A stretch of 64,000 bases of DNA from Tubulanus polymorphus (Eukaryota; Animalia; Nemertea). This document shows, in pieces, positions 1 to 24,504 of this stretch. The DNA lies in contig NC_134025.1 of NCBI RefSeq assembly GCF_964204645.1, positions 15,190,001-15,254,000 of the forward strand. Reading direction: 5' to 3'. The notes under the pieces are model-generated. The model ran no database searches, had not been told where the DNA came from, and worked only from the letters and a program-made list of their open reading frames with translations. The position numbers were made by a program, and so were the translations under genes. Numbering within the stretch: the stretch's first letter is position 1; the number at the start of each line of letters is the position of its first letter.

Positions 1-540
1 ATTTTGATACCGACAGTTACATATTAAAGATAAAAACTAATAACATAACTGATGATTTAAAAACATTAAAACATCATTTTGATTTCAGTAATTATCCTAA
101 AGATCATGAATTGTTTAGCAATGATAATAAAAAGCGACCCGGGAAGTTTTGAGGATGAATTAGGCGGTGAAGAAATGCTAGAGTTCATAGGTATTAGATC
201 TAAAATGTATTCATATAAAACTAAAGAACATGAAGCTAAACAGTTAAAAGGAATTACCAAAAGTGTAGTAGAAAAGAATATTTATTTCAAAGATTATATC
301 AATTGTATATTCAAAGAAGAAGTTAGAAAACATAAGATGAAATGTTAAACATCTGAAGATCATGAAATGTTTATTGAAGAGATAGAGAAGATAAGTCTAA
401 ACCCATTTGATAATAAAAGATATATTTTAGATGATGGAATTCATACAGTTGCTTATGGTTGTAATTTAGATGAATATCTAAAGTTCAAAAGAGAAGAAAC
501 AAAAGAGAACGAGACAATGAAAAGAATTCTAACGTGTTAA
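1..540 (+). pseudogene. pPolB: C-terminal part of protein-primed family B DNA polymerase, disrupted
   Basis: FDTDS at window start, GSFEDELGGEEMLEFIGIRSKMYSY, premature stop at 346-348, ancestral frame continues to TAA 538-540. Confidence 0.88.
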
Positions 541-569
541 TCAAATTTTAATAAAAATATGTATTATAA

Positions 570-923
570 ATGGAAAGTAAACAAGCAAACAGTGAGAACA
601 ACAAATTATTTCTAGATAGAATAAAAGATACTTCAAATGTCAAATCAGTAGATTATAAATTTAAGAAGTTAACAGAATTAACAATCCATAAGAAATATCT
701 AATTACAGATATTGTTACAGTTACTAACAAATATGGAGATAAATTAGTTATACACTTAGAATATGAAGGATTAAAAGGAAATACATATAAATTCAGAACA
801 TATTTACCAGATAGATTTCATAGATTATCAAGTGAAGATTTACAAGAATTATGTTCTGGAGATTTCTATTTCGTATACAAAGGTAAGAATGAAAAAGGGC
901 ACCATGAAATAGATTTCGAATAA
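570..923 (+). CDS. 117-aa protein, putative OB-fold/ssDNA-binding-like accessory protein
   Basis: Intact ORF directly after pPolB, conserved in both copies; FKKLTEL..KKYLIT..TNKYGDKLVIHL..FRTYLPDRF pattern; function is inference. Confidence 0.6.
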   Translation: MESKQANSENNKLFLDRIKDTSNVKSVDYKFKKLTELTIHKKYLITDIVTVTNKYGDKLVIHLEYEGLKGNTYKFRTYLPDRFHRLSSEDLQELCSGDFYFVYKGKNEKGHHEIDFE

Positions 924-940
924 GAAAATATGTAAAATAA

Positions 941-1192
941 ATGGTAGAATTAAAAGAATACAGAATATTTGTTGATTCAAGAAGGCTTACTTATTATAAA
1001 TCACATAATTTACTAGTACAATTAGATAGAGAATTTAAGAATTGTGTAGATTTAAAATTAGTTAACGTAAGTTTATGTAATTCTTTTCATAATATATCGA
1101 ATAAAAGTCTTGATCATTTAGCTTTTAAAATTCATGTTAGAAATTTGAATAAATGGTTTCATCTTTATCTAAAACCAGGATTATATAATTAA
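941..1192 (+). pseudogene. Truncated 5' part of putative minor capsid protein gene
   Basis: Homologous to the 5' part of 7642-8402; cut at the ~1190 junction. Confidence 0.65.
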
Positions 1193-1949
1193 GAAACTTA
1201 TTCTTCACCCTTTTTACCGCATCATCAATAGTTGTTTCATTGTTATGCTTATTCATCCAATCAAATTTATCATTATTTTCTACTTTATGTTTCATAGAAT
1301 CTTTATTATCAATATGCTTATCTGTAACTATATTTTCATTATCATCTTTATTAGTGTTTGCTCCTAATATTTCATTTACAGTGTTTGATCCTAATATTTC
1401 ATTAGCATCAGTTAAATCTAATTCATCTTTATTAGGTGTTGCTAATAAAAAATCTTCATATAATTCTTTACCATTTACTTTTTTATTTGAAACAAACTTT
1501 GTGACATATCTAAATGGGTGTTCTATAAATTCTCTTAAACCAACACGTTCTATAACATTAGTAATATGTACCTTTGTATTCATATGTTTATTCCAATTTG
1601 ATGGAGCGTTTGAAAATTCACCTTTACAATAAGCACAATAATTTCTATTTTCACTAACATTTAATATTATTGCATTATTAGATGTAGAAGGTATTACATT
1701 ATTAGATGTAGTAGGTATTACTGTAGTAGGTATTACTGTCGTAGGTATTACATTATTATCAATTACATTACTTAAATTATCAACAACACCACTTTTATTA
1801 TTATCGATTTCTATTAGTTTAGTTTTATAAATTTTGAAAATAGGATCAAATATCAAAGCTATATTACAAGGTATTACATAATATAAACCATCATTATTTT
1901 CATGTGTATCGATGTATGGAATATGTTTATATACTTTACCTCCTTCCAT
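1137..1949 (-). CDS. C2H2-type zinc-finger protein with short internal repeats, probably 3'-truncated by the junction
   Basis: YCAYCKGEFSNAPSNWNKHMNTKVH; VIPTT x3 and NEILG x2 repeats; last ~18 codons read into the other copy. Confidence 0.65.
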   Translation of the reverse strand: MEGGKVYKHIPYIDTHENNDGLYYVIPCNIALIFDPIFKIYKTKLIEIDNNKSGVVDNLSNVIDNNVIPTTVIPTTVIPTTSNNVIPSTSNNAIILNVSENRNYCAYCKGEFSNAPSNWNKHMNTKVHITNVIERVGLREFIEHPFRYVTKFVSNKKVNGKELYEDFLLATPNKDELDLTDANEILGSNTVNEILGANTNKDDNENIVTDKHIDNKDSMKHKVENNDKFDWMNKHNNETTIDDAVKRVKNKFLNYIILVLDKDETIYSNF

Positions 1950-1981
1950 TTAATATAAGATTTTTTATTAAAGTTAAAATT

Positions 1982-3229
1982 TTAATACATAACACTATCT
2001 AATTGTGAATTTACAATATTTAATTGCGCGTCAGATATAATATAAATATGCATTTTGAAATTTAGGCTTCCCTTTTTCTTTGTCATGAATAATTGTATTC
2101 CATCTTTAGTGTTTTGTAGTTTTTTTCCAGAACCATGTAATGAATTATCCTCTGTTGTTCTAAAATCTAACCATAATGCATATTTATTACCGGTATAATA
2201 ATCAATTTGATTAATATTACAATTTTCAGATGATTTCACATTTTCATTCATAAAATGTTTTCTAATTTCTGGCCATTGATCAATCATTCTCATTCCTTGA
2301 CAAAATATTTTATTTGCTATTCCTTCGATAGTTATTTTTACTTTTGTTATTTCAGGATTATAATAATTATCAACATTTATTGCACCATTAGAATATGTTG
2401 CAATGGTAAAAAATATCAATATACCTTTAATAGATCTTCTTGGGAAGTTAATATTCTCATTAATTATTTCATCATTTGCATTAATAGTTACAGTTTTAAA
2501 TTTATCAATATAATCATATAATAATGAAAATCCTTGATTGTATTGAGTTTGAATTATACTTGAAATATTTTCATCAGTTACTGTATCATATTCTAAACAT
2601 ATATTCGATAATTTATAACTCATATCTTTAACAACGCTAGATAATACAATTTCATTTACAGGAGCAAATGTTATTTCGAATGTAACATCTTCTTGAATTG
2701 CATATTTATATAAAGGTGCATTGTTATTTATCAATTCAAAGTCTAATGGAATTTTATATTTGCTTCCATAAATCTTTTTTATCAAATTATCTGCGGTGCG
2801 AGTTACTATTGCGTCATTAGCTCCTGATCTTAATTTATTTTGGTTTTCTGATTGGATTCCTTGAAATATCATATTATTTCTATTTTCTTTAGTTAACCAT
2901 AAATCTTTATAATGCATGAATAAATTATAATCATCTAATGAGAAAACTGTTTCTGGACCAATCTTTATTGTTAACTTTTTAATCAAATATCTTCGAACAC
3001 TATCAACAACATAATTATTATTATTACCGATTACTTTTATATCAGCTGATAAATAAATACTATTTGGAACGTAAAAAGTATTTTGTGTTAATCGATGGAT
3101 TCTAACATATAAAGTTTCATCCGGATTAATATTAGAAGGGTTATTAGTAATTATATGATGATATCTTTCTGCTTTAATAGCATTAGATATTCTATGATTC
3201 TTAGAAGGATTGATATAACTCCCACTCAT
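1982..3229 (-). CDS. Putative double jelly-roll major capsid protein (415 aa)
   Basis: Intact ORF, MCP-like size and beta-rich pattern (LIKKLTIKIG, YKIPLDFEL, FEITFAP, YKLSNICLEYD, PRRSIKGILIFF, YALWLDFR, HIYIISDAQLNI); Polinton context. Confidence 0.75.
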   Translation of the reverse strand: MSGSYINPSKNHRISNAIKAERYHHIITNNPSNINPDETLYVRIHRLTQNTFYVPNSIYLSADIKVIGNNNNYVVDSVRRYLIKKLTIKIGPETVFSLDDYNLFMHYKDLWLTKENRNNMIFQGIQSENQNKLRSGANDAIVTRTADNLIKKIYGSKYKIPLDFELINNNAPLYKYAIQEDVTFEITFAPVNEIVLSSVVKDMSYKLSNICLEYDTVTDENISSIIQTQYNQGFSLLYDYIDKFKTVTINANDEIINENINFPRRSIKGILIFFTIATYSNGAINVDNYYNPEITKVKITIEGIANKIFCQGMRMIDQWPEIRKHFMNENVKSSENCNINQIDYYTGNKYALWLDFRTTEDNSLHGSGKKLQNTKDGIQLFMTKKKGSLNFKMHIYIISDAQLNIVNSQLDSVMY

Positions 3230-3245
3230 TTATTTAACAAAAAAA
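3227..3245 (-). promoter_or_regulatory. Poxvirus-late-like promoter T7-GTTAAA-TAAATG of the major capsid gene (representative of a repeated motif)
   Basis: Same T-run/6-7-nt spacer/TAAATG architecture at starts 4732, 6140, 6591, 7039, 7285 and 7624; function inferred. Confidence 0.65.
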
Positions 3246-3269
3246 TTAATTATTTATTTTTGATCATGT

Positions 3270-4732
3270 TTACTTGATATTTTTTGATATCATATTTACT
3301 AACCCAAAAATAATAGCACTTACAACTGTAATTAAAAATAAAATAATATGTTCAGCAGCAAAGTTAATAATGTTTCCTGCAGATTTCAATATAAAACCAA
3401 CAATTGATGCAATAACTCCTGGCAATGCTGCAGCAGATTTTTTAGATAGTTCCCATAAATATTTTGCTAATTTCTTTAAACCATCTTTAACTTTATCTTG
3501 TATAGAATTATTATCATTCGGGGGTTTATCCGGTTTATTGGGAGTAGGAGTAGATTTTAAAGCATTTGATATTGCTAAACCTATTGTTGTTAATAACATA
3601 GTTACAGCTGTTAGAATTGAAAGAATTGTTATTCCTTCTAATTTAAATAATAACTGTATTCTATCTTTCAATGATATTTCAGAATTTGGTTTAATCAACA
3701 AATCTTTAAAAATAACTTTTAATCTATTAATATTATAATCATATGATTTTAACAATAATTTAATTTCTTCTTTTTGTAATTCTATGTTATATTCTAAATC
3801 ATCTTTTTCTTTTTCTAAATATGCATTTCTTTTTTTAAATTCAATTTCTTCAATAACTTTATTATCTCTATCTAATTTTAATTGTTCTATTTCTTTATTT
3901 TTATCAGTTAATTCTTTTTCTAAAGTTCTAATTTTAAAATCTCTTATACTTTTATCATGCGCGATTTTATCAGATGCAAGTCTTATACTAATAATTTCTC
4001 TAATTGCTTTATCAGAAAATATATCTAAATCTTCTAATTCTTGATCTGTTGCATCAAGTAATCCATTCGGTAAAAGTTTTTCAATTGGAACTTTATTTGA
4101 TTTAAGTTTACTAGTTTTGGAAGTTTTATTCGTTCAGAAGTTGTTTCTGTTTCTGGATTATCTTTGATTGTTTCAAATAATTCATTAATTCTTTGTTTAA
4201 ATACTCTTTCATTTTTAATAATTTCTTCTTGTGTTACATCTTCTATTTCATTACCATTTCTTATTATTTTAATTCTAGATAGTAATGAGTCAGACTTAAG
4301 CAAAGTTGATTCTGCTAATATTTTGTTTTGTTTTTTATAAGAGATATCAATATAATAATCATCTGTCAAATGATAATAATATTCACCATCTAAAGATTTT
4401 AATTCTTGTACTAAAAGTCTGGCGCCTCTATCATTTATATTATATCCAGATTCTTTAAATACATGTTGAAATTCATACATAAATTCGTAATTTTCTAAAT
4501 TTTCTCTTTCTAAACCTGGGTCTAAATTTTCAGTAGGTATTCTCGATCTAATTCTTCTATCATTTTCTTCTGTTGATGGGACTTTAGAACCACTATCTGC
4601 TAAATTAGAATTATATGCTGATTCATCATCATTATCAATATTAGTTTCATTAAAATCAGGTTGTGGTTCATCACTTATACCGGGTTCATCACCAAAAGGA
4701 TTCAATGGGATATCTTCTCCACCTTCTGCCAT
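3270..4732 (-). pseudogene. ~490-aa protein with acidic N-terminus, coiled coil and C-terminal transmembrane helices, split by one frameshift near 4080-4130
   Basis: ORFs 4034-4732 and 3270-3755 are joined by an open frame through 3756-4085 (LEKLLPNGLLDATDQELED..LQKEEIKLLLKSYD); hydrophobic segments ITILSILTAVTMLLTTIGLAI and IILFLITVVSAIIFGLV. Confidence 0.7.
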
Positions 4733-4748
4733 TTACATAATAAAAAAA

Positions 4749-6140
4749 TTAAAATTTAAAATATAATATTCCTCCGATTACAATTCCTATACAAGTTATA
4801 GCTAATTTAGTATTTTCATGGGATTTATTATCATCATTAGTTTTAATTATATCATGTTGAATATTATCAGTTTTTATATTTTCTGATGTATTATAATCTT
4901 TTATTTTAGAATCATTATTTAATTTGATATTATTAGTTTTAGTTTCTGTTGATTGAATGTGTTTTTTATTTTTTACACCTTCCATTAATTTTGGAGCAGT
5001 AATAATCTTTTTATTTATATCATTTAATCCAAATGAATTATTTATTGTTGCAGTTTTAATTAGATTATTATAACCAATTATATTTCCCATCTTTAATACT
5101 AAATCATTAGAAATAATTAATAGATTAGGGCCTATACAATAATTAAGCCTTACATGAGATTTATCTAAATAATTTTGATATCTTATAATGTTTTCTGGAA
5201 TCGATCTATTTTTATCATTATGTATGGAATCATCAAATAATACTTTGAATTGTTTTGGTGTATCGAATGATGTATTCAAATTTCCAATTATCGGGGATCT
5301 TCTTTCAACTTGCGCACCTAAAATACATATTAAATAAGTTCTAATAGATTGATTTATTCTTTGTACACCTGATTTTGTAAAACCTTCATTATTTTCTAAA
5401 ATGAAATAAACCCAACCATTATTGTTTTCTTGTTTTAAATTATCATAAAATGTCGGTAATTTATTAAAATTTAATGTTTCTAAATCCCTAGTTTCTATTT
5501 TACCATAACCTAATTTATGACTATAGATATTATACAAACTATTAGATGGTATGGGAAGTGCACAATATTCTGCAATCTTTTTAGGGCAAGGAAGTGATCT
5601 TATTGTTCCAATTTTTGTTCTTCTAAAATCAGAATTATTTATATCTATATTAAATTCATTACAAATTTTATAAAACTTAGATAAATTAATATTATTATCT
5701 AATTCTTTAAAATATCTAGATCCTGGTAAAGCGCACTCTAATTCATTTAATATTATTCTTATTTGAAAGTATGTATGAAATCTAAATAAACTTTGAATTA
5801 ATTTATATTTAGAATTATTCAAATGATCATTCCAACTAATTCCACAACCTGTTGTTGCACAATAAACAGCAAAATTTAATTGGATCTGCCAATACTTCAT
5901 ATTAGATTTTAATAACCATTGTTTTTCATCTTTCAATTTTTTAAAATTAATTAAATATACATGAAATATATTTTCCATCTTTGCATTAAAATTATTAGTT
6001 TCAGTGACATAAATTTCTAAATTAGTTAATGAATCTAAAACTTCATTTCTATATGTAATATCTTCATTAAAATCTATTGCTGGAATATTATATTTCATTG
6101 ATTTATTATATTGGAAAGCTTTTGGAAAACTATCTACCAT
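4749..6140 (-). CDS. 463-aa viral protein of unknown function with C-terminal membrane anchor
   Basis: Long intact ORF in AT-rich DNA, YWQIQLNFAVYCATTGCGIS motif, terminal LAITCIGIVIGGILYFKF. Confidence 0.8.
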   Translation of the reverse strand: MVDSFPKAFQYNKSMKYNIPAIDFNEDITYRNEVLDSLTNLEIYVTETNNFNAKMENIFHVYLINFKKLKDEKQWLLKSNMKYWQIQLNFAVYCATTGCGISWNDHLNNSKYKLIQSLFRFHTYFQIRIILNELECALPGSRYFKELDNNINLSKFYKICNEFNIDINNSDFRRTKIGTIRSLPCPKKIAEYCALPIPSNSLYNIYSHKLGYGKIETRDLETLNFNKLPTFYDNLKQENNNGWVYFILENNEGFTKSGVQRINQSIRTYLICILGAQVERRSPIIGNLNTSFDTPKQFKVLFDDSIHNDKNRSIPENIIRYQNYLDKSHVRLNYCIGPNLLIISNDLVLKMGNIIGYNNLIKTATINNSFGLNDINKKIITAPKLMEGVKNKKHIQSTETKTNNIKLNNDSKIKDYNTSENIKTDNIQHDIIKTNDDNKSHENTKLAITCIGIVIGGILYFKF

Positions 6141-6156
6141 TTATATAATTAAAAAA

Positions 6157-6591
6157 TTAATAATTTATTAATTCTTTTAATAATTTATCTTGTTCTTCAA
6201 CTGTTATATGGCCATTTAAACTTATTATATAATCTAGTGTATTCTTTAATTTATTAATTTCTTTTATATTAGTTTTAATTTTTTCTTTATTACTTTTTAT
6301 ATTTAATTTTGAACTTATACCGGTTAAAACACTTGAACTTAATCCTAATACACCAATTGATATAGCTAAAGGTGTTAATGGACTGAATATTGCTAGAAAT
6401 GTTATTACAGAACTAATTGTAACCGAACCACTTATAATCAAATAATATATAATTTTACTTTTTAAATATTTTTTCTTTTTAACTTTTAAATCATTTTCAA
6501 ATTCTAATATTTGTTTTTCTAAATATGTTTTTAATTTAGTTTTATTTATATCATGAGGAATAATATCAATATTATCAACTTTATCATCCAT
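6157..6591 (-). CDS. 144-aa two-helix membrane protein with flanking coiled coils
   Basis: Central hydrophobic hairpin IIYYLIISGSVTISSVITFLAIFSPLTPLAISIGVLGLSSSVLTGI; TAAATG start. Confidence 0.75.
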   Translation of the reverse strand: MDDKVDNIDIIPHDINKTKLKTYLEKQILEFENDLKVKKKKYLKSKIIYYLIISGSVTISSVITFLAIFSPLTPLAISIGVLGLSSSVLTGISSKLNIKSNKEKIKTNIKEINKLKNTLDYIISLNGHITVEEQDKLLKELINY

Positions 6592-6616
6592 TTATTTAAC
6601 AAAAAATAATAAATAA

Positions 6617-7039
6617 TTAATTAGTAAACTTATAAGCAACAAATATAACAATAACAGTTCCACCTAAAATCCATATTATTTCATATTTCTTCTGTTCATT
6701 ACTTGGGGTATAATAATCTGATAATTTAGGTCTGTATAGATGTAATTTTTCTTTATTGGTTACCGCGTTATATAAACTCATTGCATCATCAACTGATTGA
6801 AAATCTCTATGTGAAATCTTCTGATCATATAATTCTTTGTTAATATAATCCATATAGTTTTGCCTCTTTTCTCTATATTCTTCTGCTGCTTTTTTGTATT
6901 TCTCTAATGCTAAGTTATGTCTTCTTTGTTCTCCTAATGAACTATTTTTATCAATATGCTTAAATAAATAACCGCCACCAGTAAATGCTAAAGCGTTAAC
7001 AATTGCCGATCCTATAATAGTTATAATTGCAGAAGCCAT
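6617..7039 (-). CDS. 140-aa membrane protein
   Basis: Hydrophobic N- and C-termini around a charged helix (RRHNLALEKY); TAAATG start. Confidence 0.78.
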   Translation of the reverse strand: MASAIITIIGSAIVNALAFTGGGYLFKHIDKNSSLGEQRRHNLALEKYKKAAEEYREKRQNYMDYINKELYDQKISHRDFQSVDDAMSLYNAVTNKEKLHLYRPKLSDYYTPSNEQKKYEIIWILGGTVIVIFVAYKFTN

Positions 7040-7063
7040 TTATTTAGTAAAATAATTACGCAT

Positions 7064-7285
7064 TTATATGGGAGGAATATATTTTTGTTTTTCCAAATAA
7101 TCAATAGTTAAATTAGATAAAGTAACTGCTAATGTTAATTTTAAAATATCATTTATATCAAATCTATCAACATTAACACTTCCCATTTTAAATACTTTTT
7201 TTATTACCATTGAATAACCAACAGTTCCAACTGATAGTAATGCGCCATTATATAATCCAGTTATTATCCACTTATTATCACTCAT
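7064..7285 (-). CDS. 73-aa small hydrophobic protein
   Basis: Tightly packed ORF with TAAATG start sharing the upstream stop codon; two hydrophobic stretches. Confidence 0.7.
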   Translation of the reverse strand: MSDNKWIITGLYNGALLSVGTVGYSMVIKKVFKMGSVNVDRFDINDILKLTLAVTLSNLTIDYLEKQKYIPPI

Positions 7286-7624
7286 TTATTTATCAAAAAA
7301 ATTACTATCATCAAAATATTTAGTTAACTTATTTATGATTAATTCAACATTTATTTCATTACTACTTTGATGATTATCATATATTTTGGATAATATGTTT
7401 TTGATATCTTCAATAATTCCATCTTCACTTAATTCATAATATTCTAAAGGCGTTTTAATTAAATCAATTACTTTTTCTATATTATAATTTTCTTTATGAA
7501 TCATTGCATTGTTAAATGATTTACTTTTTATATCAGTAATTACATCATTTAGTTTAATTCTCATTTCTTTACCATGTTTAAAATCAAACCCAAAACATAT
7601 ACTCGGTCCAACAGTTATATTCAT
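7286..7624 (-). CDS. 112-aa hypothetical viral protein
   Basis: Fills the gap between neighbours exactly; T7-N7-TAAATG start. Confidence 0.65.
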   Translation of the reverse strand: MNITVGPSICFGFDFKHGKEMRIKLNDVITDIKSKSFNNAMIHKENYNIEKVIDLIKTPLEYYELSEDGIIEDIKNILSKIYDNHQSSNEINVELIINKLTKYFDDSNFFDK

Positions 7625-7641
7625 TTATATAGTGAAAAAAA

Positions 7642-8402
7642 TTACTCTCTACATCTTATAACTAATTCATAAATTACAGGGAAATTATTTAAATCAATTA
7701 AGTATCCATTATGATTTCTAATTTCTAATCTAAAATTATTAAAACGAGGAATGCATGGTTTGAAATCACATTCTGTTAAATTATAATTTATTTGCGTTCC
7801 AAATTCTTTAAAATTCTTCAATGGTAAAATGTTTAGTAAACCAGAATTACAAGTTATATCTTTAGTTGCTTCGAATGTTTTTGTAGGATCGATTAAATTG
7901 CAATAAATATAAAAGTGTGGGTAAGGTATTAAGTTTGGTGTAGTAGCGTCAATATTTGTAAAAGATCTATCTGGAAGAATTCCTAACAGTTTAGCTATAG
8001 GTTTTTTTACCATAAATTTATGTTTTTCACTATTAGACAACCTTATCGTTATTCTATCAGAACTCTCACTTTTTAAAAATCTAATACTAAACCCAGAACT
8101 ACTACCTAATTTGTGCCAGGCTTTTCTATTAATTTCTTGTGCTAATGTATCTAAATTATATAACCCCGGTTTTAAATATATATAGACCCATTCATTTTTA
8201 TTTTTATTAAAAATTAAAAAAGCTCTATGTTCAATAGTTTTATCCGATATATTATAAAAAGAATTACATAAACTTATATTAACTAATTTTAAATCTACAC
8301 AATTCTTAAATTCTCTATCTAATTGTACTAGTAAATTATGAGATTTATAATTTGTAAGTTTCTAGAATCTACAAATATTCTGTATTCTTTTTATTCTACC
8401 AT
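7642..8402 (-). pseudogene. Putative minor capsid (penton-like) protein, disrupted at the 5' end
   Basis: ATG at 8400-8402; codon 4 is TAA versus TTA in the other copy, plus a 1-nt deletion; C-terminus FYIYCNLID..SGLLNILPL..FRLEIRNHNGYLIDLNNFPVIYELVIR resembles Polinton minor capsid proteins. Confidence 0.65.
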
Positions 8403-8419
8403 TTATTTTACATATTTTC

Positions 8420-8746
8420 TTATTCGAAATCTATTTCATGGTGCCCTTTTTCATTCTTACCTTTGTATACGAAATAGAAATCACCAGATAATCTATGAAA
8501 TCTATCCGGTAAATATGTTCTGAATTTATATGTATTTCCTTTTAATCCTTCATATTCTAAGTGTATAACTAATTTATCTCCATAGTTATTAGTAACTGTA
8601 TCAATATTTGTAATAAGATATTTCTTATGAATTGTTAATTCTGTTAACTTTTTGAATTTATAATCTACAGATTTTACATTTGTAGTATATTTAATTCTAT
8701 CTAGAAATGATTTGTTTTTCTCACTGTGTGTTTGTTTACTCTCCAT
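8420..8746 (-). CDS. SSB-like accessory protein, copy of 570-923 with a 9-aa deletion
   Basis: Near-identical to the 117-aa protein; lacks 9 residues around SSEDLQELC. Confidence 0.65.
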   Translation of the reverse strand: MESKQTHSEKNKSFLDRIKYTTNVKSVDYKFKKLTELTIHKKYLITNIDTVTNNYGDKLVIHLEYEGLKGNTYKFRTYLPDRFHRLSGDFYFVYKGKNEKGHHEIDFE

Positions 8747-8775
8747 TTTAATAACATATTTTTATTAAAATTTGA

Positions 8776-11700
8776 TTAACACGTTAGAATTCTTTTCATT
8801 ATCTCGTTCTCTTTTGTTTCTTCTCTTATTTTAAGTATTCATCTAAATTACAACCATAAGCAACTGTATGAATTCCATCATCCAGAATATATCTTTTATC
8901 ATCAAATGGGTTTAGACTTATCTTTTCAATTTCTTCAATAAACATTTCATGATCTTCAGATCTTAAACATCTCATCTTATGTTTTCTAACTTCTTCATTG
9001 AATATACAATTGATGTAATCTTTGAAATGAATATTCTTTTCTACTACACTTTTGGTTATTCCTCTTAACTTTTTAGCTTCATGAGTTTTAGTTTTATATG
9101 AATACATTTTAGATCTAATACCTATGAACTCTATCATTTCTTCGCCACCTAATTCATCCTTAAACTTCCCTGGAACTTTTTTATTATCATTGCTAAACAA
9201 TTCATGATTTTTAGGATAATTACTAAAATCAAAATGGTGTTTTAATGTTTTTAAATCATCAGTTATGTTATCAGTTTTTATCTTTAATATGTAAGAATCT
9301 GTATCAAAATATAATATTTCTATATGTTTTTCTCCAAAAAGTGGTTGTAATACATTATAATAGAATTCATACATTAGTAATTTTGATAATTCTAAAACTG
9401 AAGCGCCAACATAGATTGGTTTATTAAATTTCATTGATGTTCTTCTCATCTTAACTGCGGCTAAATTTTCATCAAATATTCTGTTACCAATGAACTTAGG
9501 ATATGATTGTAAATGTCTAATTCTTTTACCATTACTGACTAACTCAATATCATTTCTATTTCTAATATTTTCACAAGTCTAACCATAGAATGCATTATTC
9601 ATTAACTTGAAGAAATCTTTTTCGAAATCAGTTTTAGCTTTAGTTCTCTGTTTGGTGTTAAAATCTATATATTTTTCTAACCACTTAGATTGACTAAATG
9701 AAATATATCTATGTACTTTTTTTAGAACCATTCCTTGTTTTAGATAAAACTTTAACATTCTATAATGTACTACATAATTATATTTATCTTCTTGAGTTAC
9801 CATTAACTTTTCTGTATGAATATGATTTTCGGGTTTAATTCTTTTTTGATAATTTGATAATTCTTCATGAGTTACAGTTTTATGTTCGGGGCAGTATGCT
9901 AGATTTCTAGATTTAAATTTAATATGTTCAGGATATTCTAAATCTACAACAAAGAAGTAACCAGTATCTGAATCATCTGCAATATCTAGGATTCTTTTTT
10001 TCCAATCAAATGTATCATTATTTTCATTCTGTAAAACTTCAGTTAATTCAAATACTCCATAAGGTTGTGGTTCCATCATTGCCCAACCATACAAATTATT
10101 TGCGTCTATATATAATAACTTATATCCGGGGTTATCATTTACATTGAAATATCTATCCCCCAATACACCTGAAACTCCTCCTCTTATAGATTTTTCAAAT
10201 AATAGTAATTGATCTATATTTGTTAACAAATCCATTTTTATATCTGTAAATTTTAATCCACAATCCCATGTTAATCCTGGTGATGAATAACAATGACAAG
10301 GATCAATGTTAAAATATTTTAGGTTAACATCTCTAAACCTTTCGAATATATCGGTTAATAATAATACATCTGATTTTAGATATGAATCTACTAATTGTCC
10401 ATGATTTTCTATTTTGAAATGATTCCAAATATTCAATGTTCTATTATAGACTTCATCTTTAACATATTCATTTTTTAATTCATCATAGAATTGTTCTTTC
10501 AATAATTCAGTTATATTGAAATCATTATGTGATTTATAAAATGAATATGGAATCGCTCCTTTATATCTCATTAATTGAAAATCATCATTATTTGGGTAAT
10601 GTTGCTTTAATATTTTTAATTCATCATCAACTAATGATTTTGATAAGTTATCTAATGAACTATTTAAAAATCTATATGAATCTATAAATCTTAGGCAACC
10701 AAATTGGAATGATGTTTTAGCTTACATTCTAAATTTATAAGTTGGTATTTTATCTTTTGATCTATTTGAATTTAATCTTTCTATTTCATTATTAATTTCT
10801 TCTATTTTATGACATAACTGTTTGATAAATAAATGTGCATCATATCCTGATAGATTATGAAATATAACTGGTACAAAGTTAATTTTCTTAGCTTGTAAGT
10901 TACAATTCTCATGTGCAGCGCCTCTAAACTTTCCGTTCAAATGATCATGGTCTCTTACTTTTTATCTTTATAATTAAATATCTTTTCACATTAATAACAT
11001 TTATCTGCAAACGCAAATTCTTCTTTATCTTCTTCTGTCATTATAATTTCTTTATTTGTATTCAATAATTTACTAAATCTTATTTCATATTCAATTAATA
11101 AGTCACAAAAATGATTGATAACATTTTCATTTCTATAATCATAATATTCACTATCAATTAGTTCTGGATAATCAGATTTTATATATAACCGGAAAGCAGC
11201 AGCTGATTGATGAATCTTTTTAATTGTATTTGTTTTTGGTGGTTCATCTGAAAAAATCATTTTCATTAGAATTTAATTTCTTTCTCTTATAATATATTTC
11301 TTTTCTATCTTGATCAGTTAATTCTTTATTTAATGATTCAAAATCTCCTTATATTACAAATGGTACTTTATTTTTGTAATCATATTTTTTGAATTCTAAT
11401 ATTTTATCTTTTTCATTTGGTAAAACTAATTTACAATAATCATGATTATCACATAATTGTTTATGATTTAATAATGTACTTTCATTACTGAATCTATGTA
11501 AACATTTTCTACAAAGATATATTTTATGGTGATCATTTTCTGATTTAAAAAATAAATCTATTTGTTTAATCCACATATAATGATTCTCATAATATAATAT
11601 ATCTATAACATCGTTTGAATCATAATCTTTTGATAGGTATAAAGGTTCTAATGTATAATGTTTTATATTGTTACCTTTTGTATTTGGTAATTTGATTAAA

Positions 11701-12776
11701 TCAAATACATTTATCTTTATATTATTATCTCTTTCTATTTTTGGGATGTTTTTAATTCTAACAGGATACTTATCTATCTTATAATTATTTTCAAATGGTT
11801 TATAATGAGTTAATCTAAAACTATGTGTAATATCTTCTGTTGGGTGTAAACAACTTATTATAGCCCATAGAAAACATTTATCATCTTCATTTTGTACATT
11901 TATTACAGCATTAGTTTTAAATGGTAGTTTAATATAACTCGATGCTTCAATATCTGGTTCTTTATTATATGATACATTATTTTCATCAATTGGTTTTGAT
12001 TTAGTTAACTTATTATATTTTGTGTTATAAACATGTAAAGTCATAAATATTATCTCATCAAATATTAAACCAGATCCTTCAAAATATTTCTCTTCTATTT
12101 TAGTTTTTACTTCATTATAACATTTATCTAATTTATGATCTATATTTTGTTTAGATATAATATGTTGTGAATGAGAATTTATATTATATATTGGTTTATC
12201 TTCAGATTTTATGAATTTAACTTTAGAAGATATACTAATTTTAGGATATTCAACATCAGTTATTATTTTTATTATTTCTTTCATATTCTAAATGTTTTTT
12301 ATTTTCTTCTAATGTTTTTCCTTTATGAAATTTAAACTCAATAGCTGCTGGGCCAATATCACTTTTAAATGCTTCGGTTATCTCTATATCTTTTTTATTA
12401 TCTAATATATTTTCTTACATCTTCCATGTATGGTGTTTTATTGTTTAATTTATTTTTTATGCTTTTAATTGTCTTCTGTTTCTTATCATTATCTTAATCA
12501 AAATAATCTTCACCTAAAATATCATTATTCTTATTTCTAATATGACTTATAGATTTTAAATGTTCTTTATAATATCTTTTATCACTGAATGATTGATTAC
12601 ATGTATCACATTTGTATGTTTCTTTTTCATTCTTTAATTCATCTAATTTAGTTTCTAATATATCATCTTTATATTCTAGTTTCAATTTATTCTCTAAATG
12701 TGTTTTAGTTTTATTGTGTCTTGCTTTTTGGGATTTATCTATATTGATATTACATGTTGGGCAGTAGTACTTATTT
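8776..12776 (-). pseudogene. pPolB: Protein-primed DNA polymerase B (~4 kb) with N-terminal Zn fingers and an endonuclease VII-like insert; multiple frameshifts and stops
   Basis: YIDANNLYGWAM, KLMNNAFYG*T, YFDTDS, GKFKDE, SKMYSY; exonuclease region FHNLSGYDAHLF and DVLLLTDIFERFR; DHDHLNGKFRGAAHENCNL; start codon appears to have lost its G (TTAAAAT-AAG TAC TAC TGC) at ~12773. Confidence 0.93.
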
Positions 12777-12854
12777 TAATACTAAATTTTTTATTAGAAT
12801 TGATTTTAGAAGTTCAATGATTTAAATGTTATTCATTTATATGAATATTTTATG

Positions 12855-13258
12855 AGTAATAGGGGTAATGGGCTTTCATATCAAAGGTTGAATGGTCGAG
12901 TTCATTAAAAACATATATTAAAGGTAATTAAAAACTATAATATATTTTCATAACCGTGTGTATTTCAGTTGAATAATAGAATAATTATTATTATTTGAAT
13001 ATATTTGATTATATGAATTTGTGTATTGTAAATAAATCAATTGGTCGCGGAGCGGAGCGGTAGCGAAGTGGAGCGACCAATTGATTTAATACAATATGCT
13101 TTTTAAATTATTGATATCTTAGAATAAATATTTAGTTATAATATAAAATGCACACGGTTATGAAAATATATTATAGTTGTTAATTACTTTTAATGTTTTG
13201 TTTTTTAATGAGCTCGACCGTTCGACCTTTGGTATGAAAGCCCATTACCCCTATTACT
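12855..13258. repeat. Terminal imperfect palindrome (hairpin) of the Polinton-like virus
   Basis: AGTAATAGGGGTAATGGGCTTTCATA..TATGAAAGCCCATTACCCCTATTACT outer stem ~110 bp; inner stem 13033-13048/13073-13088; GGAGC-rich loop. Confidence 0.93.
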
Positions 13259-13754: not shown

Positions 13755-14122
13755 AAAAGATAGAAACTCACTACTTTAGTTAATCCTCTTTTGGTCAGAG
13801 CGGTTTTAAATTACTTTAATTATACTTGGGTTATCATTATACCGTATTCAGGTGCTTTCTAACCCCGCTTGTGTCTTTTGCGCAGTACGGGCATCTGTAT
13901 TCCTGATTCGAGTGACTCGAATCGTACCAGCACGGTCTCATATTAGCCAGTTCGGATATATCTTCTGTAAAATTAATATCTTTCAATTTTTTTCTATTGT
14001 TCCAATGTTAGTTTTACGCCGCATCTAGTCGGATTTACGTCGAAAAGCTCATCGTATTTTCGGATATCTACGTAATACGGTGATCGTGACTAGATCCATA
14101 TATCTTGATAAAGTTCGAACGT
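13755..14122 (-). pseudogene. Degenerate duplicate of the 3' half and 3' flank of the PC4-like gene
   Basis: Aligns to 14815-15320 (taaaagatagaaactcactactttagttaatcctc; cgcatctagtcgga; ttgataaagttcgaacg) with indels. Confidence 0.8.
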
Positions 14123-15007
14123 AACATTTCGGCTACTATTTTAGTGCTCCAATAACAGACATCTTGGAAATGATTTGTCCTAAAACTACCCCCTTATTTA
14201 TGGGTCTAAGTCAGACGACTAATTAGTTGATTAATTCTCATAGTCTAACAGTTTACTCAAAGTATTTGAGGATTCTATCACATATAATTAACGGTGTTTT
14301 TGATACTCGGGTCTAATATCACCCAGCATATAGGACCATCTGTTCGGTTTTTTCTAAACAATTTAATTACCTCAGTGCTATGAGCACTAAAAATGTTCGA
14401 ATTATTGCTAGTGTAATTGGTTTGAAACCTCACACATAATTTCCCATCTCGGACGTGTCTCCGATCTAAATCACTTAATTGCCTTCGTCTTCCACATATA
14501 ATTAATGGTGTTTGGATACTATCGATCCATCTGCTACTAGTCTAGGTAATTGGTTTTGCTCACACCTATTTTCCCCAATCGTGGTCATGTATTGATCTAA
14601 ATCAATTAATTGCCTTCTTTGTCGGTATATGGTATCATGGGTCTGGATAGCAACGAAATGCTAGATTAACGTATTGTTAAATCAGAATGAGTCAAAAATG
14701 AAATCTTTTATTCAATAAATGTTTTATTTAGTCCTAAAAAACATAAATATTTTTATAAATATTATAGATAAACATAGGCCATATACCTATACACGAAAAA
14801 ACCATAAATCTCATAAAAGATAGAAACTCACTACTTTAGTTAATCCTCATTGGTTAGAGCGGATCTTAATGAAGTCCTGGATTAGTTATTTCGGATACTT
14901 ATTTCTATCTGAGAGTTTAACGCAAACTAACGTATATAAATTGATGTTTTTTACACATTTTGTTAATCGGTTATGATATAAATATTATTTAATTAATATC
15001 TGTGAAA

Positions 15008-15825
15008 TTATACTTGGGTGATCATTACACCGTATTCAGGCGTTTTTCTAACACCGCTGGTGTCTTTAGCGCAATAGGCGCACCTATATTCTTGATTCGA
15101 GTGACTCGAGTCATACCAACACGGTTTCATATTGGTTAGTTCGGGTATATCTTCGTTAAAATTAATGTCTTTCAACTTTTTCCATAGTTCCAATGTTAGT
15201 TTTACACCGCATCTAGTCGGAGTTACGTCGAAAAGCTCATCGTGTAGATCATATTTTCGGATATCTACGTAAATACGATGATCGTGACTAGATCTATAGA
15301 TTTTGATAAAGTTCGAACGACCAACGGTCATCACGCCTACGTAATCGATATCTTCTTTAACGCGCGCAATTTCGTGTTCGATATCGGCTTTACAATAATC
15401 TATATGTACCCACTCTTGGAGATCTAGCGAAATACCGTTCTTTGTGGGATACAGTTGTTTTCTACGCTCGCAACACTCATAAGATCGTAAATCTATACGT
15501 TTTAACCCCTGCCACGTTTTCGCACTCACGTACACAAGCGATCCTAGATAATGAGGCTCGGGGTCATTGTTCCAGGTATTCCGTTGAACTTTCGACGGAA
15601 CAGCGTTGTCATTAACGATTGAACCTATAAAACAATAAAAAATATTCTATATCAGTATACGTATGACTTAATATTTGACGGTTTCGAATACCGGAATAGT
15701 TATAAAAACTTACTAAAGTCGAGTTTGAGCGAGGGGTGTTTTCTTTTCCTAGATTGAAGAGAGGACTTTGCTCGAATCGGTGTGCTTGACATTTCTAAGG
15801 TAGTTTGTCCACTAGTCGAATCCAT
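15008..15825 (-). CDS. Spliced protein with two tandem PC4/Sub1-like ssDNA-binding domains
   Basis: IDLRSYE..PTKNGISLDLQEW and VDIRKYD..PTRCGVKLTLELWKKL; GT-AG intron 15625-15713 joins an upstream exon starting MDSTSG in frame. Confidence 0.78.
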
Positions 15826-16379
15826 CTGGGCGATACAGGTCGATGTTGACGGTTCAAAGTTTCTGAGCAGAATGATTAGTTTATGGATTTACATGACGTT
15901 TTTATTGTCAGAAAATGACTTGCCCGAACACGATTTACGGTTTCACTTGTTGTTGCGAAATATATTTCGCCCAAACTCGTTCATGATTTCACAATAGCCG
16001 TTAAAAGACGCCATCTTGGAAATATTCCCCCACTCCCCCTCCTCTCACGCACACACACACACACACACACGCACACGTTCGCGCTTACGCGCGCACGTGT
16101 ATAGAAATACGTAATATTGAGTCCGATTTAACCGAATGCTTCCGTACGGATATTAATGTAACAGAGTGAAAATATAGTTACCTATTTATTTATTTATTCT
16201 ATTTATTGCGTATTTATTGTTAATAAATGTTTTTTTAATTGTTGACATTAATTTGTTTTACATTTGTTTTTTGAATTTTTGGTTTACTTCGTTTCACCCG
16301 TACTCGGGATTCCTTGGAAAAGCGCCATCTAGGATTTACTCCTCCCCCTCCTCTCACACACACGCATAGGATGTCGTAC

Positions 16380-16697
16380 CCAATAAATAAATTTGGATTT
16401 GGTCTCAATAAATAAAATTGGATTTAACATCATCAATAAATTGATTTGGATTTGTTGTCAATTTATTGATTTGGATTTAGCGGAAAAATTTTGAATTTTC
16501 CCGCCAAAAATTTGAAATTTGAATTTTAACCGCCACTTCCGGTCGCCATCTTGGATTACGTCACTTCCGGTAACCATCTTGGATTACGTCACTTCCGGTC
16601 GCCATCTTGGATTACGTCACTTCCGGTATGACGTCATCCCCCCTCCCCCTCCTCCCCTCACTCCACTGTGGTACCATAGTGACATACCCTAACTACT
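16380..16697. repeat. Subterminal tandem repeats: ~26-bp AT-rich units, then 28-bp CACTTCCGGTCGCCATCTTGGATTACGT x3.5
   Basis: Directly visible; units contain ETS (CACTTCCGG), YY1 (GCCATCTT) and CRE-like (TTACGTCA/TGACGTCA) motifs; E2F-like TTTCCCGCC at ~16497. Confidence 0.88.
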
Positions 16698-17324
16698 GTC
16701 GATTAACTACAAAAACCTTACTACAACAAGATCGAGTCAATGACAAACATTAACTGCTAACGGTTGCAATTATGGGTCATTTTCAACTGTTTAATATATA
16801 CAATACAATAGGTGGATCCTCTTCAGGTATGGTGCTGGAAAATGTCGCAGATTCAAGCGAACATTATCAATCACGGTGACAGTTTCATATCAGTAACAGA
16901 ATCGTATTCAAGGTCAGACAAGGACAACATCTGCCTATAATTCAAAGTCCATAAAACTTCGGTCGTGTGTATACAATTTCACCATCTCAATGCTGCTGCG
17001 CCTGATCTATACATAGTTTAACTTAAATATATTATCAAGGCACACTGGAGCCATCTTGATAGGCTACAAAATTAGATTTATTACATACAAAATGCCTGAC
17101 CCATCTTATGATTTTCCCACCATTTTGGATGAACAACAACAACAAAAAAGTCTCAGCCAATCACTGAGCTTGAATTCTCACCCTCGCATGCCTGTGAAGG
17201 AAAGTAATCCCAGAAGGTGGCAGCACCATACGGGAAACAATTTAAGACAAAATTACTTAATTTACAAAATTAAAACAATGAAATACAATTGGTAACACTT
17301 GTTTCTGGTGGCTGTCTGTGACTT

Positions 17325-18002
17325 ATGTTTTCTTTATATAAGCGTGAACGTCGAAGGGGTAAGACAGAAGCCCAGAAAAAACTTCGAGTCCTTTCGAAAA
17401 TGATAATTTTGGACAAAAGCAAGTGTTCAAAATTGCCTGTTGAAGTTTGGTGCCGTGATAAAGGTGGACTTTACAAATTCAAGCCAGAATTCATGGATAT
17501 GGTAAAATCAATTGATACCGAAATCATGAATTGTGTAAATGTAACCGAATTGCAAAAACATAAAAAAAGAATTATCAGGGTAAGTAAACAATGTTTTAAA
17601 ATATTTTTTATTGCCCTTAAAACAAAAAATACACATCAAAATAAATTAAATGTTCATATTTTTCAGCTTACAACAGACAAAATTCTGCCAAACAAGGATC
17701 TTGAAGCAGTTTTTGTCGGACTTGTCACACAAAGTGTTGGATCAGAGGTGGCAGATGAACTGAGACTGAACATAGTTTCTGTTTGGACGGACTTTTTGCG
17801 TAAATACACTCATGCGCGCATAAATGGAATCATAAAGGGAATATACGTGAAAAAAGTAGAAAAATCTGGTAAACGCCTGAAAGGAGGATCAAGCTTAAGA
17901 GAAACGCTTTATAATCTTGGAAAGACAAGAAACCCTAAACATTCTAAATCAACTCCTTCAACTTCTAAAAAACAATCTGTTCGTAAAGGAAATAAACGGT
18001 GA
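17325..18002 (+). pseudogene. 3' part of a transposon-associated gene convergent with the transposase; 87-nt intron 17580-17666
   Basis: RDKGGL motif, basic C-terminal tail, gtaagt..tttcag intron; in-frame TGA just upstream (VSGGCL*LM). Confidence 0.5.
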
Positions 18003-18230
18003 CATGGTTATTAATTGAATAATAATACGATTCTTCATTTGATGTATATAAAGGTAACTAAGAAATTGGACAATACATGAACGTATATGTTTATATATAA
18101 TTTATTTTTAGTTTGTTAATTATTTTTTTATCATGAGTGGAACGTCCTGGGTATAAAGCGGTGTATCTCTGTAATAATTTCTCTTCTTTTTCTTCTGATG
18201 GCCATGGACCTCTCTTTTTAACATAACAGT

Positions 18231-21200: not shown

Positions 21201-21401
21201 ATCTCCAGAGCAACTTAAAAATCGTATTTGTAATAACGCAAATAGATCGTGAATATAGTTAACTATTTCTGACAATTCCGATGGACCAGCATTAAGAGCA
21301 ATTTTGCTACTACCCGTTTGAGTAGTTTTATGGTCAGTTTCTTTAGAAAGTAATACTGGAACATAAATAACGGCGGGTTGCGCTGGAAAAAATGTAGTCA
21401 T
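18231..21401 (-). CDS. Seven-exon P-element/THAP9-like DDE transposase (~823 aa; stop may be premature, frame continues to ~18121)
   Basis: Exons 20420-21401, 19629-20203, 19338-19523, 19027-19248, 18687-18948, 18513-18568, 18231-18419 join in frame at GT-AG sites; LILDEVK, VVTDGASIN, CPSHQLKN, KLNVKPAKI, NGSAVETLFSQFK. Confidence 0.8.
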
Positions 21402-22469
21402 CTTTTCAGCTTTACTTGTTGCAATTGAAAGACATTATATGAATGCGGCTTTATATATGTTTTGAGTTGATCAGTTTGATGGTTTCTAGGGGTATGAACA
21501 CTGATATTAGTCACGGTAATTAAAAAAAGCAACTGCTATGTTTTAACCCGTGCACACAGTGATGCATGGCAACTGGTAAAACCATGAACAACTATCTTTT
21601 TCGTAGTCATACAAATTTACTTGAAAATCCATATAGATGTAATAAGTTCATTTTTTTATTCAAAGGTACTTATGAGTGGTTATGGCTTAAAACTCCCATT
21701 CATATTGCTTTTCTATATTACGGGTTGTCTAAGTCGTTATTCGAAAAACATCAAATGAAAAAAAAACCCGTGTAATTTACCTATCTGAGAAAAACTTGTA
21801 AAACTCATTTGTTCTCGTCGGTTTAGCAATTTTAAAGGATTCGAGGTAGAGAATCGTATATATTTTCACTATCTCTATAAAATACCAAATCAAAAGAAGT
21901 TGTTTAGCCTAGTTGTTAACGGCGGGTTGCGCTGGAAAAAATGTAGTCATCTTTTCAGCTTTACTTGTTGCAATTGAAAGACATTATATGAATGCGGCTT
22001 TATATATGTTTTGAGTTGATCAGTTTGATGGTTTCTAGGGGTATGAACACTGATATTAGTCACGGTAATTAAAAAGAGCAACTGCTATGTTTTAACCCGT
22101 GCACACAGTGATGCATGGCAACTGGTAAAACCATGAACAACTATCTTTTTCGTAGTCATACAAATTTACTTGAAAATCCATATAGATGTAATAAGTTCAT
22201 TTTTTTATTCAAAGGTACTTATGAGTGGTTATGGCTTAAAACTCCCATTCATATTGCTTTTCTATATTACGGGTTGTCTAAGTCGTTATTCGAAAAACAT
22301 CAAATGAAAAAAAAAACCCGTGTAATTTACCTATCTGAGAAAAACTTGTAAAACTCATTTGTTCTCGTCGGTTTAGCAATTTTAAAGGATTCGAGGTAGA
22401 GAATCGTATATATTTTCACTATCTCTATAAAATACCAAATCAAAAGAAGTTGTTTAGCCTAGTTGTTAA
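21368..22469. repeat. Near-perfect 549-bp tandem duplication covering the transposase start and upstream region
   Basis: Identical ORFs at 21566 and 22115; junction microhomology TAA; mirrored at ~45465-46566. Confidence 0.93.
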
Positions 22470-23264: not shown

Positions 23265-23771
23265 GAGTTGTACATTTTTAGTCTTTATGAATTTTTGGTA
23301 ATATTGATAGTTTGTGGTTGTTCTGATTCCATTTATTATACATATTTTTTTACTAAATTGATTTTAGAAGTTCAATGATTTATATATGTATTATTTCAAT
23401 CACACTTTACTAACACTTTTAATGTTTAAAAATCTGACTCATACAAATATAAATATTGAAATAATGTTGTAAATATATCTATATATCTATTCTATAAGAG
23501 CTTACACTTTTATATTGAATAATCTATCAATTTAAATGCTATTCATATATATTTTATTCATGCATATGAATATTTTAAGAGTAATAGGGGTTTAGTTGTT
23601 CTAGGTTAAAGGTTGAATGGTTGAGAAATTTTCCAAATGTGAAATAATAATAATTTCTACTTGAATTAGGAGTGTGCGCGACTAATTCAAGTAGAAATTA
23701 TTGTTATTTCACATTTGGAAAATTTCTCGACCGTTCGACCTTTGATCTAGAACAACTTAACCCCTATTACT
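23265..23771 (-). mobile_element. Relic terminus of a related hairpin-ended element (192-bp palindrome 23580-23771 plus start of a first gene)
   Basis: AGTAATAGGGG..CCCCTATTACT ends, shared AAAGGTTGAATGG and TGATTTTAGAAGTTCAATGATTTA blocks with 12800-12900; TAAATG at 23330-23335. Confidence 0.8.
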
Positions 23772-24504
23772 GCCAAGGATATGAATGGTTTGTGATGATA
23801 TTATGTTAACTAAATTCATTTGTTGGTTGAACGATTTCAATTAATATCGCAATATTTAGCATTCGTGATATAATTAATATAGATAGAGATATGGCCATTT
23901 GTCCATTGTTTATGTTAGCAAAAGATTGCATTTGATATAGAAGGCTTTAAAATGTTTTGATGTATGGTTGAGATTTTCAAAATAAATGTTATGCTTACAT
24001 GAGATAATTGGAACTAGATGTTTTATTTCATTTTTTATCAAGTATCGATGGATGAGAAGTCTTTCGACGATGTGCAGTTAGCCCATTAGAGTTTGCCTTA
24101 AAATACTTTACTCTCAGTCTGCTGAATTTAATTCATACCGCCGTTACAGTACCATAAAATTCACACTAAATCTTTAGCGTCATTGGAATAGGACGTCCCC
24201 TGTTTCACATCCGGCAGGTGTGGTGCCGGTGGGTAAGTTTAATAAGGTACACCAAATCTATTAAAACGATCGCTATTTTAAAATCAAAACATCCCGAAGA
24301 AATTGGGGATTCGAACCTATCGGATATATACTGGTACTCGGCGTCTTTCCACTTAACAAAACATCGTCAATAACATTAGTTCTTATTATTGCTAAGTAGC
24401 GGCGCTACCGGTGCTGTCGATCGGAGATTAGAAACTTTCTACCTTTTGCCATTACAAGGAAGTAAAGAATGGGGCTACTAAGACTTGCGCGCCACCTATC
24501 CCTC

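Follow-up and report, generated by a model that had tools for sequence, protein, structure and literature searches.

It is an open question whether the Polintons of animals live as independent viruses of the nucleus or as satellites that rely on large DNA viruses; for almost none of them has a virion or a helper been described. Here, we analyse a decayed Polinton-like provirus of the nemertean Tubulanus polymorphus, which occupies bases 1-13258 of a 64,000-nucleotide stretch of the genome (assembly GCF_964204645.1, contig NC_134025.1, positions 15,190,001 to 15,254,000; the whole stretch is called the window hereafter). Nearly all of its genes start within the hexamer TAAATG, and an earlier note on this DNA had proposed that these starts are poxvirus-type promoters, transcribed by a poxvirus-like RNA polymerase that a large DNA virus of the cytoplasm would supply. 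TAAATG is a lineage-wide and clade-specific start signal, and its probable reader would be the polymerase of a co-infecting virus of the poxvirus type.

Described virophages share promoters with their helpers. Those of mavirus match the late motif of Cafeteria roenbergensis virus (CroV; 10.1101/068312), and the virophage PgVV uses the early motif of its helper (10.1101/2022.07.28.501842). The late promoters of vaccinia virus are described as a T-containing core, about 5-7 bp, and TAAAT(G/A) over the start, with no 5' untranslated region (UTR; PMC5294985), and the intermediate ones as a consensus-free AT-rich core 12 bp from TAAA, read by the viral polymerase itself (PMC12917281). TAAATG also served to annotate the genes of salmon gill poxvirus (PMC4542343). 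From the initiator mechanism described in PMC6211774, the T at -3 would be left out of the late mRNA of poxviruses, with an A supplied in its place by the poly(A) leader. The clade studied here resembles the late promoters in the TAAAT(G/A) overlapping the start and in a T-run spacer of 6-8 nt, as compared with about 5-7 bp. Its second, A-rich class is spaced 11-14 nt from the initiator, as compared with 12 bp in the intermediate promoters, a weak match, the vaccinia core having no consensus. Unlike in vaccinia, the motif stands on a genome in which no RNA polymerase gene was seen and at about nine in ten genes, and no early-type poxvirus core was detected at the clade starts.

With mavirus, the lineage shares pPolB and an RVE integrase (the latter in relatives of the window's element), a double-jelly-roll capsid, a penton whose top structural match is that of mavirus, integration into the host nucleus, and promoters that would match the late motif of a helper. 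It differs in carrying TAAATG instead of the CroV motif TCTA, in a host that is likely an animal, in the lack of a detected protease, and in a helper, a reactivation and a protection of the host that are putative. An association of Polinton-like viruses (PLVs) with poxviruses is already known from insects. AHEV_PLV1/2, CBEV_PLV1 and Ca_PLV1 were proposed as poxvirus hyperparasites and described as the first of their kind (Barth et al. 2024, PMC11296320), on the grounds of co-packaging in entomopoxvirus occlusion bodies; one of them is integrated in an insect genome. These are likewise small Polinton-like viruses with a proposed tie to poxviruses, but each of the four has a gene for an adenovirus-type protease, and no such gene was detected in the window. 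Mavericks/Polintons (Polintoviricetes, adintoviruses) have in common with the lineage pPolB, an RVE-chromo integrase and an A32 ATPase (both in relatives), major and minor capsid proteins and an AGT-type terminal sequence. Unlike them, the window's capsid lacks a match to PF21738, the Maverick-type capsid family, and no protease was detected.

Literature searches, in one case of the top 25 of 234 matches and with few subscription journals covered, found no published report of a Polinton or PLV with TAAATG and a late promoter of the poxvirus type. The main text of the entomopoxvirus PLV paper (PMC11296320), in the portion available, never mentions a promoter or motif, and the word promoter is absent from the available text of two 2026 PLV overviews, an adintovirus paper and PMC11161782.

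A clade-specific start signal

The earlier note had placed the start codons of the element inside TAAATG. This holds for 11 of the 12 starts defined by homology, the twelfth being TAAAATG; the 12 represent ten distinct genes, two of which are present twice. As a null, the first ATG after an in-frame stop was taken at non-gene positions of the same element, where TAAATG occurs in 35 of 388 cases (9%). Upstream of the 12 starts lie a T-run at 6-7 nt in seven and an A-rich core in the other five, and both sets were found at the positions, and the former with the run lengths and spacers, that had been claimed (Table 1). The pattern T4-N(5-9)-TAAATG occurs eight times in bases 1-12900, seven times at gene starts and never on the plus strand. 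Among host-side flanking open reading frames (ORFs) of at least 150 aa, several of which are mirror copies, none of 12 starts with TAAATG. At the end of a second, related element, an A-rich core with TAAATG at 23332 stands beside the same hairpin. One claimed site did not survive as a start: near 12776, upstream of pPolB, the window copy has no ATG, a base having been bracketed in by the earlier note, so that the site is uncountable.

The window capsid has 835 homologues. From an alignment of 68 capsids, the best 80 of 153 matching metagenome stretches and two genome-collection loci were retrieved, and these loci share a conserved gene set. Capsid scans of IMG/VR returned no relatives. In a quick IQ-TREE run of 58 capsids, the window falls within a clade of 15 rows (SH-aLRT 99). 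With database proteins added, FastTree placed about 60 distinct capsids in the window's branch. Elements in animal genomes have capsids of this family too, one example being a protein of Mactra antiquata; among its close relatives TAAATG is missing.

Starts were counted for full-length ORFs of conserved families with 36 nt upstream, after de-duplication and with the pPolB of locus L041, which has no family assigned, excluded. TAAATG is present at 46 of 50 conserved-gene starts in the 15-locus clade and at 12 of 12 in L025, L063 and L041. It is found at none of 11 in the sister loci L015, L016 and L027, at 2 of 42 in outgroup loci below 40% GC (both in L078), and at none of 181 in outgroup loci of at least 40% GC; the corresponding null is 116 of 1799. 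The local upstream GC is comparable (0.16 vs 0.19), and the AT-rich starts outside the clade have AAA before the ATG in 25 of 42. Within the clade, the signal is kept in L006-L008 at 36-44% GC (9 of 11 starts).

Head-to-head gene pairs carry TAAATG on both strands in seven of nine cases, two of the seven being near-duplicates, with 19-30 nt between the ATGs. The TAA doubles as the stop codon of the upstream gene in 3 of 85 starts. Furthermore, the -3 position is T in 60 of 64 clade starts, while other loci keep a purine there (38 of 42 AT-rich and 145 of 189 GC-rich starts), which makes a host translation context unlikely. Together, clade specificity, the both-strand spacers and the T at -3 argue against composition, stop-start coupling and host translation context. 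The absence of introns, which the earlier note had also listed, is true of the element but not diagnostic, for the outgroup elements are intronless as well.

A second lineage may have made the same change. Among 16 viral contigs retrieved with the window's pPolB, one Maverick-type contig from IMG/VR (L156, 9034 nt) has TAAATG at 7 of 8 ORFs of at least 100 aa, pPolB included, with a null of 4 of 193. The other 15 have zero to two such ORFs each; four of these are AT-rich with several ORFs. The RVE-chromo integrase of L156 has a protease-like N-terminal fusion, and TAAATG is also carried by two head-to-head ORFs that lie 34 nt apart. Its ATPase groups apart from the window's family, and the pattern is absent from the three viral contigs closest to it by ATPase. 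Resolution in the pPolB tree is too weak for a link between L156 and the clade. These comparisons suggest an independent, convergent switch to TAAATG, seen in a single contig that comes without its capsid gene.

Candidate readers of the putative promoters

The upstream cores were counted at 81 TAAATG starts, including both starts of L078, neither of which fell in a class. TTTT ends 5-9 nt before TAAATG in 45 of the 81, against a shuffle mean of 9.9 (maximum 20), an enrichment over background that bears out the T-run part of the proposal. At TAAATG occurrences that are not starts, this is the case in 10 of 137. Where a T-run is nearby, the spacer measures 6-8 nt in 40 of 50 starts. The A-rich class is represented by AATAA 11-14 nt upstream, at 10 of 81 starts vs 3.2 expected (p 0.0015), for a motif that was picked post hoc from the same sequences; nine of the ten cases come from the four closest loci. 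In orthologues the A-rich core is retained at the Zn-finger gene (3 of 3, including L001 and L005) and the penton (2 of 2), and none of six ATPase starts has a T-run. The SSB-like (single-stranded DNA-binding protein-like) orthologue in L003 changes class, and the penton, a structural gene, sits in the supposedly earlier A-rich class. The temporal cascade in two classes put forward by the earlier note is weakly supported; the post hoc motif, its concentration in four close loci, the changed SSB-like gene and the placement of the penton count against it. The least certain part of our reading is that genes with the A-rich core may be intermediate ones, switched on earlier than those with a T-run.

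Motifs of other systems are not enriched at the clade starts, namely AAAATTGA, CroV TCTA, baculovirus TAAG and TATA, and ATNTGA of the yeast plasmids occurs at 1 of 79 vs 7.7 expected. The lack of enrichment for mimivirus, CroV, baculovirus, asfarvirus and yeast plasmid motifs was counted for a poxvirus-type reading. Only pPolB is of polymerase size among the ORFs of L001, L003, L005 and L041, contigs that may be incomplete. With no polymerase gene of their own seen in the clade elements, the RNA polymerase would have to come in trans. The window holds a decayed, integrated Polinton-like virus of a TAAATG lineage, and we consider it probable that its start sites served as post-replicative promoters for an RNA polymerase brought in by a cytoplasmic virus of the poxvirus type during co-infection. 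The start sites would work like a virophage promoter set, and what they most resemble are poxvirus post-replicative promoters. As far as the poxvirus-type polymerase is concerned, the proposal gains from clade specificity, persistence at higher GC, occurrence on both strands, the anti-Kozak -3 position and recurrence in L156, while helper dependence is something that we infer only.

By analogy with vaccinia, the helper polymerase would start inside the AAA of TAAAT and slip, giving a 5' poly(A) leader and an mRNA without a 5' UTR. No gene, not even one for replication, would be expressed until the helper enters its post-replicative phase, much as mavirus depends on CroV for its timing. Between infections, the chromodomain integrase may park the genome in host chromosomes, where it would stay silent; expression, replication and packaging would then follow during the post-replicative phase of a poxvirus-type infection, in a mavirus-like cycle. 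The element may also have restrained its helper, which is among the least certain of our conclusions.

Several observations weigh against this explanation. No T-run is nearby at 29 of 79 clade starts. The large counts are not independent, for the clade contrast reflects no more than one or two gains in evolution. The pPolB start of L041 lacks TAAATG, and this locus stands on a long branch beside non-TAAATG loci in the capsid and ATPase trees. The outgroup locus L078, conversely, has TAAATG at both of its two starts, and a single clean gain does not account for the two loci. The depletion of AATAAA and of splice sites within coding sequence, measured with L002, L011, L015, L016, L027 and L078 left out, does not separate the clade (observed/expected ratio, O/E, 0.97) from the AT-rich outgroup (0.96). 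No gene of demonstrable poxvirus origin was found, and a scan of IMG/VR for helpers with the T-run/TAAATG pattern gave 59 loci, none of which has more than two TAAATG-started ORFs. A literature search on poxvirus-like viruses of marine invertebrates yielded nothing relevant. To our knowledge, the late promoters of most Pokkesviricetes are undescribed, and in the available text of the egovirus preprint the word promoter does not occur (10.1101/2024.03.23.586382). As a separate observation, depletion of TTTTTNT (O/E 0.37) was rejected as specific evidence, homopolymer runs being depleted in all groups.

The alternative that fares best keeps the helper and changes its identity, to a large DNA virus of the cytoplasm that is no member of the poxvirus lineage (asfarvirus-like, egovirus-like or undescribed) but happens to have TAAAT as its late initiator as well. 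Late promoters are known for few groups of nucleocytoplasmic large DNA viruses, asfarvirus-like viruses are reported from abalone, the promoters of African swine fever virus are likewise built of a core and an initiator, and TAAAT is found in those of ranavirus DNA polymerase genes (PMC5294985). However, the asfarvirus late promoters described so far use TATA/TATATA (PMC5294985, PMC11788076), which is not enriched at the clade starts, and it is in poxviruses that TAAAT runs into the ATG and follows a T-run at a distance of about 6 nt (PMC4542343, PMC5294985). We regard such a helper as unlikely.

Host machinery could instead read the genes, with TAAATG as a lineage-specific Pol II start or translation context and no helper at all. 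The element does integrate into nuclear DNA, its relatives carry an RVE-chromodomain integrase, and the AATAAA/splice-site result gives no sign of escape from nuclear processing. Against this stand the T at -3, the opposite of the Kozak-like purine in the outgroup, the absence of TAAATG starts from the host-side ORFs of the window, and the divergent spacers, which would leave no room for two Pol II promoters and UTRs. Taken together, these points make a host reader quite unlikely.

We find it very unlikely that no large virus is involved and that the poxvirus-related polymerase comes from an accompanying element or genome segment in the cytoplasm, as it does from pGKL2 for pGKL1 in yeast. Yeast virus-like elements do have a TAAAN initiator, 5' poly(A) slippage and a polymerase close to that of poxviruses (PMC6211774), and cytoplasmic plasmids are described as derived from polintons (PMC11161782), but their upstream element is under-represented at the clade starts, and the two upstream classes resemble late and intermediate cores, not the early-type core of the yeast plasmids. 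Finally, TAAATG as a mere consequence of high AT content or of stop-start translational coupling between tightly packed genes, to which the element's GC of 21-25% and the gene at 7285, whose TAA is the stop codon of the upstream ORF, might point, is highly implausible: both causes were largely rejected, the first on the AT-rich outgroup and the persistence of the motif at higher GC, the second on the rarity of stop-start adjacency and the divergent genes that carry TAAATG on both strands.

If a poxvirus-type helper is indeed the reader, the mavirus model of integrated, helper-activated virophages extends from protists to animals. Lifestyle could then be read from sequence, by a promoter switch that is clean and confined to one branch of the family, and the prediction is sharp: 5' poly(A) leaders at TAAAT, and no activity except in cells infected by a poxvirus. 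The switch also hints at poxvirus-like viruses in hosts for which our literature search found none. More tentatively, and with somewhat less than even odds, it may be that an endogenous virophage-like lineage is widespread in invertebrate genomes and tuned to an undiscovered poxvirus branch, that at least two unrelated Polinton lineages (the clade of about 60 capsids and L156) switched independently to poxvirus promoters, that start-codon context predicts the helper, and that intact copies could be an inducible, mavirus-like antiviral defence. The window copy is itself too broken for the role of an inducible virophage; it is a relic, whose promoters record how the lineage worked.

The element, its ends and its surroundings

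The provirus stands out by its low GC from the rest of the window (29-46%), which holds LINE-type (long interspersed nuclear element), Penelope-like and Gypsy retroelements, a content that points to the chromosome of an animal. On the minus strand, from the right end inward, the order is palindrome, pPolB, SSB-like gene, penton, five small or unassigned conserved genes, F3, capsid and Zn-finger-like gene, with intergenic gaps of 0-40 nt (Table 1). Bases 1-1197 are an inverted second copy (89% identical to 8147-9310) and not extra genes, and the element is broken, with disrupted ORFs in pPolB, F3 (3270-4732) and both penton copies. ATPase, integrase and F2 are not in the window's element, and all three are found in its closest relatives, where the ATPase is A32-like (PF04665) and the integrase of L001 and L003 has rve and chromo domains.

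Table 1. Features of the provirus and of the second element end, in window coordinates.
Feature	Position	Strand	Support or remark
pPolB 3' part, second inverted copy, broken	1..540	+	89% identical to 8147-9310; tblastn: frame change and stop
SSB-like gene, copy A, ATG 570, A-rich core + TAAATG	549..923	+	orthologue in L003
Penton (minor capsid) 5' fragment, copy A, ATG 941, A-rich core + TAAATG	920..1192	+	penton of L003 59% identical; family fold as in mavirus penton
Zn-finger-like gene, ATG 1949, A-rich core + TAAATG	1137..1970	-	weak zf-C2H2_2 match; abuts inverted copy
Major capsid protein, 415 aa, intact, ATG 3229, T7-6 nt-TAAATG	1982..3245	-	structure model, Foldseek, homologues
Family F3 gene, ATG 4732, T7-6 nt-TAAATG, ORF broken by frame change	3270..4748	-	F3 of L003 matched in two frames
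Family F4 gene, 463 aa, ATG 6140, T6-7 nt-TAAATG	4749..6156	-	68% identity to L003
Hydrophobic 144-aa gene, ATG 6591, T6-6 nt-TAAATG	6157..6607	-	
Family F7 gene, 140 aa, hydrophobic N-terminus, ATG 7039, T4-6 nt-TAAATG	6617..7053	-	
Family F8 gene, 73 aa, ATG 7285, T7-6 nt-TAAATG within last codons of upstream ORF	7064..7301	-	
112-aa gene, ATG 7624, T7-7 nt-TAAATG	7286..7641	-	N-terminus matches L003 ORF
Penton main copy, ATG 8402, A-rich core + TAAATG, broken near 5' end	7642..8422	-	
SSB-like gene main copy, ATG 8746, A-rich core + TAAAATG	8420..8768	-	
pPolB, broken	8826..12780	-	PF03175, E 1.9e-11
A-rich promoter-like site upstream of pPolB, no start codon in window copy	12770..12800	-	
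Imperfect palindrome, 404 nt, right end of element	12855..13258	.	folds at -119 kcal/mol, z -22.7; beyond it GC rises from ~21% to 33%
End of second related element, same hairpin ends, A-rich core + TAAATG at 23332	23300..23775	-	mirrored at ~44160-44630

The window capsid is, according to its structure model (pLDDT 89.7), of the double-jelly-roll type, as in Polinton-like viruses (Polisuviricotina); the top Foldseek matches are the double-jelly-roll capsids of PBCV-1 (Paramecium bursaria chlorella virus 1), SGIV (Singapore grouper iridovirus), faustovirus and mavirus. It has no PF21738 match, whereas the capsid of L153, a Maverick-type contig, matches this family at E 3e-47. The penton orthologue of L003 folds as a single jelly roll, with the pentons of mavirus (best) and Sputnik as top matches. 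The SSB label is a weak lead only, with a phi29-SSB cluster at 0.85, and a PDB search left it unconfirmed; what stands of it is a gene with an orthologue in L003. The F4 protein has no match in Pfam, PHROG or Atlas, and no name or family was recovered. An adenovirus-type maturation protease gave no Pfam or PHROG match among the proteins of the window or L003, where several conserved genes have no assignment. By capsid, penton and pPolB, the element would be classed as Polinton-like, and a placement in Virophaviricetes or canonical Mavericks goes beyond the evidence.

The region 1137-1197 is a tail-to-tail junction of two related elements, 89% identical and both truncated. An ATPase-integrase block lies at the matching place in L001, L003 and L005 and is gone from this junction. 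A single end of the provirus lies in the window (12855-13258). This palindromic end and that of the second element (23580-23775) have the same outer sequence and different inner parts, and both show the same two mismatched outer-arm positions, as judged by eye. The shared ends are possibly a functional terminal structure. Short palindromes were seen near the ends of the outgroup contigs L031 and L069 as well.

Other palindromes were seen close to the ATPase gene, either in the gaps between genes or behind them, and both the clade and the outgroup have them (L001:3787-3822, L005:3183-3255, L003:9082-9359 and L033:1932-2004). They are reminiscent of the hairpin polyadenylation rule of mimivirus. 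Genes for a deoxynucleoside kinase (PF01712) and for HNH or endonuclease-VII-like proteins are also present in clade members, and most of them start with TAAATG (L003:10343-10981; L001, L007, L008, L012, L025). Short contigs that bear the names of several Bartonella isolates include a capsid of the window's clade (P0044 cluster), probably as host-derived contamination. In the GC-rich outgroup (for example L023, L030 and L044), TTGAA/TGAAC occurs within 36 nt upstream of 34 of 189 starts vs 9.3 expected, a count inflated by related loci, and is perhaps that lineage's own promoter element.

Farther along the window, 14408-29488 and 38443-64000 form a giant inverted duplication of 99.7-99.9% identity, interrupted on one side by a Gypsy long terminal repeat element and with tandem Penelope-like elements at its centre. 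It is either a very recent rearrangement or an artefact of amplification or assembly. A PC4 gene with two PC4 domains lies beside the element end in several partly decayed copies (15008-15331, 13856-14121 and 62765-63400).

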